Notes: generated by a model from the sequence alone, not told the origin. A stretch of DNA of 64,000 nt from an uncultured Thermoleophilia bacterium (GCA_963715985.1 CAVQSP010000017.1:96001-160000), one strand, 5' to 3'; shown: positions 56,192-58,896, counted from the stretch's first letter. Numbers and translations are program-made.

Positions 56192-56998
56192 CTACTCGAG
56201 CACGACGAGCGCGTCCGCCGTCAGCTCGTACTCCTCGTCCTCGTTGAGGTCGTGGACGCGGATGCGCTCAAGTTCGCCCTCGCCGAGCAGCTCGAGCGGC
56301 TGCGCCTCGGTGAGCAGCTTGACGTCCGACAGTCGCAGCGCCGAACGCACGGCGCTGCTCACGCTGGGTTCCTTGCCGGTCGTCATGAGGACGACGCGCC
56401 CCGTGTGGTCGGTGAGGTCGATGGCCGTCTGCGCTGCGCGGTCGCCGGTGTCGAGGACGACGACGCGCTGGCCGGCCAGGGCGGAGAGGTCGTCGAGCGC
56501 CTTGTACACGCCCGCACCCTCGTAGTCGGCGAGGTTGCCGATCTCGACCTCCACCACTTCGGCCGGGCGCGGGTGGCAGCTCTTCTCGACCGGCGTCGTG
56601 GTGGCGTCCTCCGGCTTCACGCCCTCGCGCCAGTTCTTGATGGCCTCGTGCAGGGCGTCGGCCGCCAGGTTGCTGCAGTGCATCTTGATGGGCGGCAGGC
56701 CGTCGAGCGCGTCGGCCACGTCGCCGCGGCTCACCTTGAGGGCCTCGTCGAGCTTCATGCCGATCACGAGCTCCGTGACCATGCTCGAGGTGGCCACCGC
56801 CGACCCGCAGCCGAAGGTCTGGAACTTGATGTCCTCGATGCGGTCGTCGTCGGTGACCTTGATGTAGATGTCCATCATGTCGCCGCACACGGGGTTGCCG
56901 ACGCGGCCGACCGCGACGTTGGGGCCCTCCAGGGTGCCGACGTTGCGCGGGTTGCGGAAGTGCTCGAGGGTCTTCTCGCTGTACTGGGTCGATTTCAT
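56192..56998 (-). CDS. iscU: IscU/NifU-type Fe-S scaffold fused to a degenerate thioredoxin-reductase NAD(P)H-binding domain
   Basis: EHFRNPRNVG, GNPVCGD, FGCGSA, LPPIKMHCS; C-terminal YEGAGV...GQRVVVLDTGDRAA...ELLGEGELERIRV...ELTADALVV. Confidence 0.88.
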   Translation of the reverse strand: MKSTQYSEKTLEHFRNPRNVGTLEGPNVAVGRVGNPVCGDMMDIYIKVTDDDRIEDIKFQTFGCGSAVATSSMVTELVIGMKLDEALKVSRGDVADALDGLPPIKMHCSNLAADALHEAIKNWREGVKPEDATTTPVEKSCHPRPAEVVEVEIGNLADYEGAGVYKALDDLSALAGQRVVVLDTGDRAAQTAIDLTDHTGRVVLMTTGKEPSVSSAVRSALRLSDVKLLTEAQPLELLGEGELERIRVHDLNEDEEYELTADALVVLE

Positions 56999-57041
56999 GA
57001 CTGGTGCCTCTCGCTGGTGATGGTCCGTGCGTCGCGCCTGG

Positions 57042-58229
57042 TCAGGCCGGCGTCTTCGCCTTGTAGAGCGGGCTGAGCGTGCGCAGCCGCGTGATGACGC
57101 CGGGCAGGGCGGCCATGATGCGGTCCACGTCCTCCGCCTCGCTGAAGCGCCCGAACGTGAACTCCAGGGAGCCGTGCGCCTCCTCGTGGAGCAGCCCGCA
57201 GGAGATGAGCGTGTGCGAGGGCTCCAGCGTCTTGGAGCTGCAGGCCGAGCCCGTGGCCGCGGCGACGCCCTCGTCGCGCAGCGAGAGGATCATGGCCTCG
57301 CCCTCCACGCCGTCGAAGCGGAAGTGGGCGTTGTTGGGCAGGCGTCCGCCGGGGCGGTCGAGCGGGGCGCCGTTGAGGTGCGAGTCGGGGATCTCGGCGA
57401 GCACGCGCGCCACGAGGTCGTCGCGGATGCCGCGGATGCGCTCCACTTCGGCCGGCATCTCCGCCCTCATGATGTCGGCGGCGGCGGCCATGCCGGCGAT
57501 GGCCGCGAGGTCCTCGGTGCCCGAGCGCAGGCCGCGCTCCTGCCCGCCGCCCAGCAGCACCGGCGCCACCTGGACGCCCGCACGCACGTAGAGAGCGCCG
57601 ACCCCGCGCGGCCCGTAGATCTCGTTGGACGAGAGGCTCATCAGACTCACCGGGACGCTCTTCGTGTCGATCGGCAGCAGGCCCTCGGCGGCCACGGCGT
57701 CCGTGTGCAGAGCCACGCCGGTGCCGGCGAGCATCTCGGCGATCTCGGCGATGGGCTGCACGGTGCCGATCTCGTTGCTCGCCCAGCCCACGCTCACCAG
57801 GATCGTCTCGTCGGTGATGCGGGCGCGCAGCTTCTTGAGCGACACGCGCCCGTACAGGTCGATGGGCGCGCGCGTCACCTTGAACCCGTTCTTCTCCAGG
57901 TACTTGGCGATGTTGAGCACCGAGATGTGCTCGGCCTCGGTGATGACGACGTGATTGCCCTTGCGGCGGTTGCGCTGCGCGTAGCCGATGAGCGCGATGT
58001 TGCTGGCCTCCGTGGCGCCGGAGGTGAAGACGATCTCGCGCGGCTCGGCGCCGAAGAGCGCGGCGACCCGGCCGCGCATCTCCTCGAGCGCCGCCGTCGC
58101 CTCGTCGCCCACGGCGTGCAGCGAGGCGGCATTGCCGAAGGCGGTGCCGCCGAAGTACGGCAGCATGGCCTCGACGACGCGAGGGTCGACCGGCCGGGAG
58201 GACTGGTAGTCGGCGTAGACGACGGCCAT
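57042..58229 (-). CDS. iscS: IscS/NifS-like cysteine desulfurase homolog lacking the PLP lysine
   Basis: FTSGATE, NEIGTVQP, GGGQERGLRSGT, GSACSS; SSNEIYGP replaces canonical SAHKxYGP. Confidence 0.9.
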   Translation of the reverse strand: MAVVYADYQSSRPVDPRVVEAMLPYFGGTAFGNAASLHAVGDEATAALEEMRGRVAALFGAEPREIVFTSGATEASNIALIGYAQRNRRKGNHVVITEAEHISVLNIAKYLEKNGFKVTRAPIDLYGRVSLKKLRARITDETILVSVGWASNEIGTVQPIAEIAEMLAGTGVALHTDAVAAEGLLPIDTKSVPVSLMSLSSNEIYGPRGVGALYVRAGVQVAPVLLGGGQERGLRSGTEDLAAIAGMAAAADIMRAEMPAEVERIRGIRDDLVARVLAEIPDSHLNGAPLDRPGGRLPNNAHFRFDGVEGEAMILSLRDEGVAAATGSACSSKTLEPSHTLISCGLLHEEAHGSLEFTFGRFSEAEDVDRIMAALPGVITRLRTLSPLYKAKTPA

Positions 58230-58591
58230 CAGAAGTACATCGTGGCGCCTGCGTCGAGCGCGAGGTCGTTGAGCGTGGCGGCGCCCACGATCTTCACCCC
58301 GTCGATGAGCTCCACGGACTCCCAGCCGAGCATCTGCTTGGAGGCCTCGCACACGTACACGGTGATGCCCATGTCCAGGGTCTTCTGGAGCATCTCGGCG
58401 ACGCTGGGGAAGCTGCCGAGCTGCATCTTCTCCGCCTCGCCGGGCTTGAGCACGGTGAGTCCCATGCCCAGGTAGTACACGGCCGCGTCGAGACCCATGG
58501 CCTTGGCGCTCTGCGCGAGCACGAGCGGAGAGTACTGGCGCTCGGGCGCGTTGCTGGTCTGCACGTACAGGATGGAGTTCTCGTTCTTCAT
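58229..58591 (-). CDS. DsrE/DsrF family sulfur-carrier protein
   Basis: 120 aa, PLVLAQSAKAMG, VYVCEAS conserved Cys, VGAAT; its stop overlaps the iscS start. Confidence 0.85.
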   Translation of the reverse strand: MKNENSILYVQTSNAPERQYSPLVLAQSAKAMGLDAAVYYLGMGLTVLKPGEAEKMQLGSFPSVAEMLQKTLDMGITVYVCEASKQMLGWESVELIDGVKIVGAATLNDLALDAGATMYF

Positions 58592-58607
58592 GATCGTCGG
58601 CTCCTCG

Positions 58608-58850
58608 TCACTTGAGTCTGCGGATGCGGATGCGCAGCTGGTCGCCGTCATGGTCTACGTCCACCACTTCGTGGCCGGCGCGCTTGGCGAAGCGCGTGAG
58701 GTCCTCCTCCGCCGCCGGGTCGTCGGCGAACACCTCGAGCACCTCACCGATCTCGATGGCGTCGATGGCCTCCCGCGTCTGGAACAGCGGCTCGGGGCAG
58801 TACAGCCCGATGCAATCGAGTGTGGATGCTGGGGTCGTCTGGTCGCTCAT
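58608..58850 (-). CDS. tusA: TusA/SirA family sulfur carrier
   Basis: LDCIGLYCPEP (CPxP), GEVLEVFADDPAA. Confidence 0.92.
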   Translation of the reverse strand: MSDQTTPASTLDCIGLYCPEPLFQTREAIDAIEIGEVLEVFADDPAAEEDLTRFAKRAGHEVVDVDHDGDQLRIRIRRLK

Positions 58851-58872
58851 GCGTGCTCCTCCGGGGACGGTC

Positions 58873-58896
58873 ATACCCAACCACTGCGGTCGGTAT
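58873..58896. promoter_or_regulatory. Rrf2/IscR-like operator upstream of tusA-dsrE-iscS-iscU
   Basis: Minus strand ATACCGACC-GCAGT-GGTTGGGTAT, imperfect palindrome resembling IscR type-1 boxes, about 22 nt before the tusA ATG. Confidence 0.5.

Follow-up and report, generated by a model that had tools for sequence, protein, structure and literature searches.

A conserved tusA-dsrE-iscS-iscU cassette encoding an IscS without the pyridoxal phosphate lysine in an uncultured Thermoleophilia bacterium

The systems closest to the locus treated here, a four-gene cassette (tusA-dsrE-iscS-iscU) of an uncultured Thermoleophilia bacterium, are the IscS–IscU pair of Archaeoglobus fulgidus and the isc1 genes of Methanosarcina acetivorans; what is said of them below refers to the accessible parts of the papers cited. 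The cassette lies in a stretch of 64,000 nucleotides (nt) (GCA_963715985.1 CAVQSP010000017.1:96001-160000; this whole stretch is called the window), which has a G+C content of ∼70% all along and whose closest relatives are metagenome-assembled Thermoleophilia (Actinomycetota). IscS of A. fulgidus carries an aspartate, Asp199, binds pyridoxamine 5′-phosphate (PMP), has no desulfurase activity, and may only be a partner of the scaffold; one of its cysteines ligates the [2Fe-2S] cluster on IscU, and the D199K variant likewise holds PMP and not pyridoxal 5′-phosphate (PLP) (PMC8918507). How clusters are assembled without a desulfurase in this organism was posed as an open question, with sulfide proposed as the source (PMC8918507). 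In M. acetivorans, IscS1 (MA0808) is devoid of the catalytic lysine and IscU1 (MA0807) has a mass of 24.2 kDa compared with 13.9 kDa for IscU2; both genes cluster with four genes of unknown function, as they do in M. barkeri and M. mazei, and TusA is not mentioned in the accessible part of this paper (PMC7585200). In the proteomes of M. acetivorans, consistent detection was limited to IscS2 and IscU2, and IscS1 was termed possibly nonfunctional (PMC7585200). The A. fulgidus type is filed in the literature under the minimal iron–sulfur (MIS) system, the least studied of the iron–sulfur (Fe–S) systems, which “does not contain additional components” according to the accessible part of a 2026 review (PMC13066941).

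Several other systems share parts with the cassette. As in the IscS–TusA complex of Escherichia coli (3lvj/3lvk), a TusA with a CPxP motif occurs together with a class I IscS fold that has a mobile loop cysteine. In E. coli, however, sulfur flows from active IscS to TusA, for tRNA and the molybdenum cofactor, and because the IscS of the cassette is predicted to be inactive (see below), the flow would here have to be reversed or to bypass IscS. As in the TusA–DsrE3 relay of sulfur oxidizers (sHdr/rDsr), TusA is paired with a small, single-cysteine protein of the DsrE family, but that relay feeds a dissimilatory oxidizing enzyme, whereas the neighbors in the cassette are IscS and IscU. TusA and DsrE3 proteins bind polysulfide sulfur and hand it to partners, and the structure 3MC3 is that of the DsrE3A-type trimer SSO1125, according to the accessible part of PMC11094781. 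SufS–SufE and SufS–SufU resemble the cassette only as functional analogues, in which a dedicated carrier shields the persulfide en route to the scaffold; unlike in the cassette, the SUF system begins with an active desulfurase, and the carriers are not homologous. A published description of a tusA-dsrE-iscS-iscU cassette was not found in a full-text search (Garcia et al. 2022, Tanabe et al. 2019, and supplements lay outside its scope); in the accessible part of PMC8085985, TusA and DsrE occur only within an expression list.

All four genes of the cassette are co-directional on the minus strand, in the order tusA-dsrE-iscS-iscU. The first, tusA (58608..58850), encodes 80 aa (Pfam TusA, 7.7e-24), and the dsrE-like gene (58229..58591) encodes 120 aa (Pfam DsrE, 3.4e-14; DrsE_2, 2.3e-14). 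They are followed by iscS (57042..58229; 395 aa; Pfam Aminotran_5, 3.6e-63, residues 5-371), the product of which is without the PLP lysine and is referred to as lysine-less IscS, and by an iscU fusion (56192..56998; 268 aa; Pfam NifU_N, 4.2e-46, residues 5-125). The spacers measure 16 nt (tusA-dsrE) and 43 nt (iscS-iscU), and a single base (58229) is common to the TGA of dsrE and the ATG of iscS; the tight packing and the overlap of stop and start described in an earlier note on this DNA were thus found where it had placed them. The NCBIfam equivalog models NifS, IscS, IscU, and TusA all match, and all match below their curated cut-offs, which makes the cassette proteins members of these families rather than standard orthologs. 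A GC-rich hairpin with a weak T tail (56113..56148, minus strand), 44 nt past the iscU stop and between iscU and a convergent rubrerythrin gene, is by its position likely the end of the operon; the count of terminator-like sites in the region (one, versus a shuffle mean of 0.5) is not significant by itself. No match resulted from a sigma-70 promoter scan of 56050..59100. In metatranscriptomes, small shares of the locus (0.05-0.08 of words) were present in 11 RNA runs from seven studies. Short contigs from RNA libraries (four runs, four studies), 85-100% alike, cover pieces of all four genes, and three of them bridge the junction between dsrE and iscS (X2, 58156-58315; X4, 58129-58279, no differences; X5, 58197-58343). 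These contigs document the presence of relatives and are not proof of co-transcription, because they cannot show a single transcript and because DNA may be present in the libraries.

When lysine-less IscS was aligned to solved structures with HMMER, its lysine motif (SSNEIYGP) corresponded to SGHKIYGP of E. coli IscS and to SSNDIYGP of A. fulgidus IscS, which means that the Schiff-base lysine is replaced by Glu203 and the preceding histidine by Asn202. The loop cysteine, Cys330, is retained (TGSACSS, aligned with SSGSACTS of E. coli). Of the features that define a class I cysteine desulfurase, the aminotransferase class V fold and the loop cysteine are therefore present and the Schiff-base lysine is not, whereas both features of the inactive IscS of the A. 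fulgidus type, an acidic residue at the lysine position and a conserved loop cysteine, were found. The same SSN-acid-x-YGP in place of S-x-HK, together with the loop cysteine, is seen in the A. fulgidus IscS(2)–IscU structures (4eb5, 4eb7, 4hvk), the Asp of A. fulgidus corresponding to Glu in the window. Among PDB entries, the closest is A. fulgidus “cysteine desulfurase 2” (4eb5, 8.2e-127; E. coli IscS, 7.3e-93), and the NCBIfam scores reach 427.8 for NifS (cut-off 530.75) and 357.9 for IscS (cut-off 643.2). The earlier note had called attention to the loss of the lysine in IscS, to the preserved GSACSS loop, and to the three cysteines of IscU, all of which were visible in the alignments; it had also drawn on A. 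fulgidus as the precedent (acidic residue, inactive, cluster ligand), in agreement with the accessible parts of PMC8918507 and PMC7585200.

For comparison, one genome per species was scanned, and the best 80 loci encoding a relative of lysine-less IscS (59-90% identity) were evaluated. The sequence TGSAC[ST]S is present in 80/80. At the lysine position, alignment-based read-outs gave Asp in 78 and Ala in one, the motif of the remaining one not being read. The Glu of the window is thus an exception, and of the search motif put forward in the earlier note, S-S-N-[DE]-x-Y-G-P, the Glu describes the window itself, whereas nearly all relatives have Asp. A total of 13 positions divide 43 cassette IscS from seven canonical paralogs of the same genomes; they include A180 (Gln in 7/7 canonical paralogs), N202 (His), D/E203 (Lys), and K333/T334 just behind the loop cysteine. 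The shift from Q, H, and K to A, N, and D/E occurs jointly across the clade. In a maximum likelihood tree (quick search, LG+G4) that included 10 further class V paralogs from these genomes (eight of the IscS/NifS type and two distant ones as the outgroup), the 43 cassette proteins form one clade (Shimodaira–Hasegawa-like approximate likelihood ratio test, 100), and with the root on the distant class V outgroup, the Asgard proteins are basal. The arginine by which E. coli IscS binds its substrate offered no argument, since it is not found at that place in the canonical NifS of this genome either. Judged by its residues, lysine-less IscS is predicted to be unable to form the PLP aldimine, and it is best read as an A. 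fulgidus-type IscS paralog presumably without desulfurase activity.

The 80 loci are spread over Thermoleophilia, other Actinomycetota (including Coriobacteriia), Syntrophaceae, other Thermodesulfobacteriota, WOR-3, Zixibacteria, Aminicenantes, Acidobacteriota, Eisenbacteria, and archaea (Asgard and euryarchaeal). The cassette, which the earlier note had described as a route in a bacterium, is consequently not peculiar to bacteria. Gene order and strand are alike in nearly all loci. TusA is encoded in 77/80, which is every locus with room upstream, the three misses being contigs that end just there. IscU is encoded in 78/80 (one contig end, one Eisenbacteria locus), DsrE in 71/80 (two contig ends and seven true absences, with tusA directly before iscS), and the fused C-terminal domain of IscU (C-domain) also in 71/80 (seven contig ends, the Eisenbacteria locus, and one locus with a broken iscU). 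The Eisenbacteria locus (L084:1-5305) has the reduced form dsrE-iscS, iscU being absent within 3.8 kb downstream. The co-occurrence of lysine-less iscS with tusA, dsrE, and fused iscU, which the earlier note had suggested examining, is seen in 77, 71, and 71 of 80 loci, and the linkage to tusA and dsrE, the loss of which in related genomes was to speak against its proposal, is strongly conserved. All-against-all clustering of open reading frames (ORFs) in the 5-kb flanks of the 80 loci yielded no fifth widely common gene (next clusters, ≤22 loci), and no hsc, fdx, or suf genes are common to these flanks. That the cassette is real and conserved can be stated with high confidence.

A search with lysine-less IscS of 151 archaeal genomes, from the phylum of one archaeal carrier, returned 30 loci, 13 with a lysine-less IscS (ND in 10; NA, TD, and NN in one each) and 17 of the HK type. 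In 12 of the 13 lysine-less loci, tusA adjoins iscS, compared with none of the 17 HK-type loci; at the 13th, the contig ends within the upstream region, with dsrE still visible. dsrE adjoins 11/13 lysine-less iscS. The fused C-domain is present in four of the 13 loci. Seven of the 13 show tusA-dsrE-iscS-iscU or a remnant of it at a contig end (one without tusA, one without iscU), and the six iscU seen among these are short (127-153 aa) and without C-domain. Two archaeal loci (L121 and L123) have a reduced form consisting of tusA-iscS only. A bacterial control gave the same picture: none of 11 other class V loci from cassette genomes (eight of the IscS/NifS type, three more distant) had tusA or dsrE within 1.5 kb, compared with both genes at 5/5 cassette loci. 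In the samples examined, linkage of iscS to tusA is thus confined to the lysine-less type.

In TusA and in proteins of the DsrE type, a conserved cysteine bears the persulfide sulfur, and TusA docks on IscS near the loop cysteine. The TusA of the cassette has the fold and the CPxP cysteine that define the family: Cys18 (CPEP) aligns with the cysteine of E. coli TusA, the best PDB matches are TusA/YhhP 1dcj and 3lvj, and the Pfam score is 83.8 bits (cut-off 28.6), with the NCBIfam equivalog staying below its cut-off (55.3 versus 78). Among 38 sequences, Cys18 is invariant and Cys13, which has no counterpart in E. coli TusA, is kept in at least 90%; column identity across the relatives averages 72%. 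The DsrE-like protein likewise combines the DsrE fold (Pfam DsrE, 53.4 bits; cut-off 22.7) with the active-site cysteine, in this case its single cysteine, Cys81, which is invariant and aligns with the cysteine of 3mc3 (best PDB match, 2.3e-10), and column identity averages 81% over 38 sequences from many phyla. Its likeness to DsrE3A is that to this closest solved structure only (3mc3, 2.3e-10), and NCBIfam DsrE2 gives 35.6 bits (cut-off 210). Since three further TusA-family matches and up to three further DsrE-family matches are present elsewhere in the genome, the carriers encoded in the cassette are dedicated paralogs. At one such place (G000:C10:126036-133929), two more TusA-family matches and one DsrE-family match lie within 8 kb, which looks like another sulfur-carrier locus. 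When DsrE and TusA were folded together, the prediction scored 0.37 (best control, 0.01), with at least 97% of the contacts agreeing between runs and a partner pLDDT (predicted local distance difference test) of at least 88. In the benchmark, that mark was reached by 58/80 solved complexes and 2/110 mismatched pairs, but scores ≤0.60 that passed came from only 7/80 solved complexes and from both passing mismatches. The predicted fold therefore lends the pairing weak support.

The IscU domain of the fusion spans residues 1 to ∼128 and is followed by a variable linker and by the C-domain (∼147-268; window 56195..56560). An alignment of 41 sequences shows no variation at C38, D40, C64, H107, or C108 or in the motif LPPIK, and these residues amount to the full set of an IscU-type scaffold, that is, three cluster cysteines, Asp, His, and an LPPVK-like motif. 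This domain is near A. fulgidus IscU (4eb5_C, 1.8e-44), the crystallized chain of which, with 153 residues, is too short to hold the C-domain of the fusion. The C-domain is a homologue of the NADPH domain of thioredoxin reductase (TrxR) and TrxR-type ferredoxin-NADP reductases: a 41-sequence profile matched 2zbw (1.5e-14) and 3lzw (4e-13) in the PDB over ∼115 residues, NCBIfam TRX_reduct matched with 1.8e-8, and a language-model look-up in a protein atlas assigned the C-terminal part of a homologue to Pyr_redox families (score 0.96). The redox motif of TrxR is CATC. None of the hallmarks of these reductases was found in the C-domain: the flavin adenine dinucleotide (FAD) domain is absent, the redox CxxC is replaced by KALD, and the GxGxxG/A motif for NADPH is degraded to VLDTGDRA, of which only the middle Gly is nearly invariant. 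An oxidoreductase function is unlikely for this reason, and the C-domain is probably a redox-dead relic used for docking, as we infer from its sequence. Querying 1.84 billion representative proteins with the C-domain gave only 66 representatives at E ≤ 0.001; the 16 that were inspected are mostly IscU fusions or fragments, the weakest ones (P0170 and P0175) being TrxR-like proteins. No match was obtained in a plasmid collection. Three genomes of the window's genus (G139, G145, and G156) gave two matches each to the C-domain marker, both copies being full length and on different contigs in G139 and G145, the second being weak (7.3e-9) in G156; in these genomes, either the cassette is truly duplicated or the assemblies are redundant.

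Upstream of tusA lies a palindrome, AATACCGACC-gcagt-GGTTGGGTAT (58873..58897), which ends 22 nt before the ATG, just ahead of a GGAGGAG ribosome site, and is a candidate operator of the Rrf2/IscR type; we take it to resemble the type 1 IscR site of E. coli. Of the 73 loci for which upstream DNA was available, 19, all of them close Thermoleophilia relatives, have it ahead of tusA with ≤2 mismatches, its arms being conserved and its 5-nt spacer variable; a few other loci have different palindromes at the same spot. Genome-wide (4.35 Mb), only four sites exist at ≤3 mismatches, this one included, with 0.32 expected by chance at this threshold and 0.015 at ≤2 mismatches. One site (1 mismatch; 42954..42978) is located before an ORF of 138 aa (42939-43355, plus strand), cupin-like by eye, and another (2 mismatches) at the start of an ORF of 514 aa (G000:C11:335673-337228), the first 100 residues of which match DUF1858 (2.1e-15) and which is a possible further member of an Rrf2 regulon. 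The last (3 mismatches), on contig C20, lies just upstream of an Rrf2 gene heading rrf2-nifS-iscU; the encoded protein, one of six Rrf2 paralogs of the genome, has three cysteines (Cys101, Cys108, and Cys114) with IscR-like spacing. This related site renders the IscR-like palindrome of the earlier note plausible. A conserved palindrome that recurs at an iscR-desulfurase-scaffold operon, as found here, is what defines an IscR (Rrf2) regulon, binding being predicted, and fits a small putative IscR-type regulon made up of the canonical pair and the cassette.

The operon on C20 encodes a canonical NifS (SGHKLYGP, SSGSACAS) followed by an IscU of 121 aa, with the Rrf2 gene ahead. Each of five other bacterial carriers, three of them complete WOR-3 chromosomes, encodes one lysine-less IscS with SSND plus one or two S[GA]HK proteins with the cysteine loop. 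Of five archaeal carriers, two encode an IscS of the HK type plus a SufS-type protein, two a SufS-type protein (SVHKMLGP), and the fifth, with a small genome, only a partial second gene. Thus, 10 of 11 genomes with lysine-less IscS contain another, lysine-bearing desulfurase, which could load TusA, and because these enzymes look active, a sulfur source independent of cysteine is possible but not required. The designation “cysteine-independent” used in the earlier note is therefore not supported.

SUFBD_core (PF01458) had no match in this genome (a metagenome-assembled genome, MAG, 88.8% complete with 7.3% contamination) nor in the five other bacterial carriers, including the three complete chromosomes; the bacterial carriers searched are without classical SufBD. 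In an even sample of the class (201 genomes, 12 families), the C-domain marker was found in 43 genomes and in two families (24/35 and 18/35), and in 0/130 genomes of the rest. SufBD was found in 131/201, families without the cassette mostly having two strong matches (E ∼1e-88); among the 43 marker genomes, the best match was 1.2e-18, with 13 having weak single or double matches and 30 none. Because kin are not independent, this pattern should be counted as two or three events rather than 43. In the family of the window (f1), 18/35 genomes have one or two weak SUFBD_core matches (E 1e-8 to 1e-21), which fall well short of classical SufB/SufD (1e-88). The notion that the cassette always excludes SUF was rejected on account of the SufB-like match in Asgard carriers, and for the same reason, replacement of SUF is not general.

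Rubrerythrin genes are recurrent neighbors, being present within 5 kb of the cassette in 22/80 loci from several phyla (Thermoleophilia, WOR-3, and Aminicenantes) and adjoining 3/13 archaeal lysine-less loci. In the window, the rubrerythrin gene (55525..56100, plus strand; NCBIfam RuberyRbr, 1.9e-89, above the cut-off) is convergent with the cassette and is a neighbor, not part of the core. This neighborhood hints at a link with peroxide stress.

Taken as a whole, the cassette fits best as an A. fulgidus/MIS-type variant with accessory parts, and not as a separate route. MIS is defined by an IscS-like gene that adjoins an IscU-like one and lies, like it, outside nif, isc, and suf operons, as is the case here, but the definition also excludes additional components, and here TusA, DsrE, and the fused C-domain are added. 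The claim of a route distinct from standard MIS was thus too strong, its core pair being of the very type that is filed there. With a probability of roughly 0.55, the cassette is an IscR-controlled accessory module for Fe–S assembly of the MIS type that is fed by a persulfide relay. Lysine-less IscS, in which the lysine is lost and two further PLP contacts are altered, would no longer draw sulfur from cysteine but would still pair with IscU and present its mobile loop Cys330; the loop cysteine of A. fulgidus reaches the cluster site of IscU. The DsrE-like protein (via Cys81) and TusA (via Cys18) would supply Cys330 with sulfane sulfur in the form of protein persulfide, and from there the sulfur would pass to IscU, the site of cluster building. 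Loading of the carriers might be the task of a canonical paralog with desulfurase activity, or the sulfur might come from an inorganic source, sulfane sulfur or sulfide. IscS would, in other words, have been turned into an adaptor that accepts sulfur rather than producing it. The second cysteine of TusA may, as a matter of speculation, act as the resolving thiol that frees sulfide, and the degenerate TrxR-type domain on IscU would be a docking module, not a redox enzyme. The IscR-like Rrf2 repressor would switch the cassette jointly with canonical iscR-nifS-iscU.

Several observations weigh against a persulfide-fed assembly module. Binding, the direction of the sulfur flow, the sources of sulfur and electrons, and the role of the C-domain are what we infer here, and for the existence and direction of the sulfur transfer it is gene linkage that suggests them. 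The earlier note, in presenting sulfur delivery by TusA and DsrE on the grounds of linkage and family knowledge, overstated its case, the complex prediction for the two carriers being only weak. The flanks of the 80 loci hold neither a linked donor enzyme (e.g., rhodanese) nor an electron donor. DsrE and the C-domain are dispensable in some cassettes, DsrE being truly missing in 7/80 loci and the C-domain being absent in the second archaeal group, so neither is essential to the core. Every well-covered carrier genome that was checked also encodes a desulfurase with the lysine and, in most cases, another IscU; the cassette may therefore serve a narrow purpose rather than general assembly. As to SUF, its absence from this genome rests on an incomplete and partly contaminated MAG, and four Asgard carriers each have one SufB-like match (E ∼1e-46). 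Finally, the hypothesis published for A. fulgidus is direct use of sulfide, for which no carriers are needed (PMC8918507, accessible part).

This last point leads to the alternative that survives best, although on balance it is doubtful: IscS–IscU would use sulfide directly, and TusA and DsrE would use IscS as a docking hub only, exporting sulfur (to tRNA thiolation or the molybdenum cofactor) or buffering reactive sulfane sulfur. That the sulfide hypothesis has been published (PMC8918507, accessible part) is in its favor, as are the database records, which describe the carriers as anaerobic inhabitants of wetlands and sediments, environments rich in sulfide, and the seven loci without DsrE. 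It also has a parallel in E. coli, where TusA gets its sulfur from IscS for tRNA and the molybdenum cofactor (PDB 3lvj); an IscS that makes no persulfide, however, has nothing to hand to TusA, and the genome has three further TusA-family genes for other tasks. Moreover, the strict linkage to tusA (12/13 versus 0/17 in archaea) is hard to square with a hub that any IscS could provide, and the operator is also present at iscR-nifS-iscU.

A reading that goes beyond the persulfide-fed accessory module, and that is tentative at best when taken as a whole, regards the cassette as a self-sufficient and ancient Fe–S synthesis that does not start from cysteine. In it, the DsrE3-like protein and TusA would collect environmental sulfane or sulfide-derived sulfur and deliver it to the loop cysteine of the pseudo-desulfurase on IscU; Cys13, as the resolving thiol, would set sulfide free on the scaffold and thereby make a ferredoxin unnecessary; the TrxR-derived domain would dock the carrier or the carrier's reductant; and in bacterial lineages without SufBD, the cassette would do the stress-proof work of SUF. 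If true, this would explain the A. fulgidus-type IscS–IscU pair and add a persulfide-relay branch to the five known prokaryotic Fe–S systems.

Rather improbable is a role in repair, storage, or hand-over at times of stress, in which a stable [2Fe-2S] cluster would reside on IscS–IscU and TusA and DsrE would help to re-sulfurate or replace clusters damaged by oxygen or peroxide, instead of clusters being assembled de novo in bulk. The rubrerythrin genes beside the cassette (22/80 loci and 3/13 archaeal ones) point in this direction but are lacking at 58/80 loci. The operator family recurs before the gene with the DUF1858 domain, a canonical assembly pair coexists with the cassette, and the A. 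fulgidus complex, when isolated, carried a cluster to which the IscS cysteine is a ligand; none of the four proteins, however, is specific for repair, and IscU retains all residues of an assembly scaffold. In part, this explanation overlaps with the persulfide-fed module, from which it differs in the timing rather than in the mode of action.

Still less probable is that lysine-less IscS has kept an enzymatic role with a different chemistry, in which PMP and the acidic residue would serve a reaction with some other sulfur donor, the product being accepted by TusA and DsrE. A. fulgidus IscS does bind PMP for a reason termed unclear (PMC8918507, accessible part). The Thr (GATE), His (AEH), and Asp (HTDA) of the PLP pocket are kept, as judged by eye in the alignment, and the exchange of Q, H, and K for A, N, and D is uniform in the clade, which resembles a new specificity more than decay. 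Yet wild-type A. fulgidus IscS is without desulfurase activity, PMP and not PLP is held by the D199K variant as well, and an alternative activity is not described in the accessible part of the literature on it. That the cassette is a decaying, nonfunctional remnant of a duplicated isc operon, as the lost catalytic residue and the M. acetivorans IscS1 termed possibly nonfunctional, with only IscS2/IscU2 consistently present in proteomes (PMC7585200, accessible part), might suggest, is contradicted already by conservation and can practically be dismissed: four intact frames with invariant cysteines are highly conserved from Asgard archaea to Actinomycetota, the operator is conserved, and pieces of all four genes of relatives occur in metatranscriptome contigs.

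Lysine-less IscS is thus tied to two dedicated carriers across many phyla, although MIS has been described without accessory parts, and in one large subclade, the fused TrxR-derived domain is linked to it as well. The conserved TusA/DsrE pair is a candidate answer to the question of where lysine-less IscS gets its sulfur, by a route that can be tested; in the accessible part of the literature on the A. fulgidus complex, a TusA or DsrE partner is not discussed. In M. acetivorans, where IscS1 is without the catalytic lysine and IscU1 is large as in the cassette, isc1 is predicted to be equivalent to tusA-dsrE-iscS-iscU, which would suggest an identity for the “genes of unknown function” beside iscS1-iscU1. 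The cassette further points to a distinct Fe–S strategy in bacterial anaerobes without classical SufBD, among them little-known groups like WOR-3, Zixibacteria, Aminicenantes, and anaerobic Thermoleophilia.

Two further features of the window lie outside the cassette. An ORF of 76 aa (55245-55475, plus strand) just upstream of the rubrerythrin gene contains two internal repeats (L..I..LEE.LGV.L.A) and matched no Pfam or NCBIfam family above threshold. On the other side, a long ORF (60486-63077, plus strand) encodes C-terminal 4Fe-4S dicluster and thiamine pyrophosphate (TPP)-binding domains and resembles a 2-oxoacid:ferredoxin oxidoreductase; its true start is probably much later, because the upstream part overlaps with an ORF for an EamA transporter (60520-61428).

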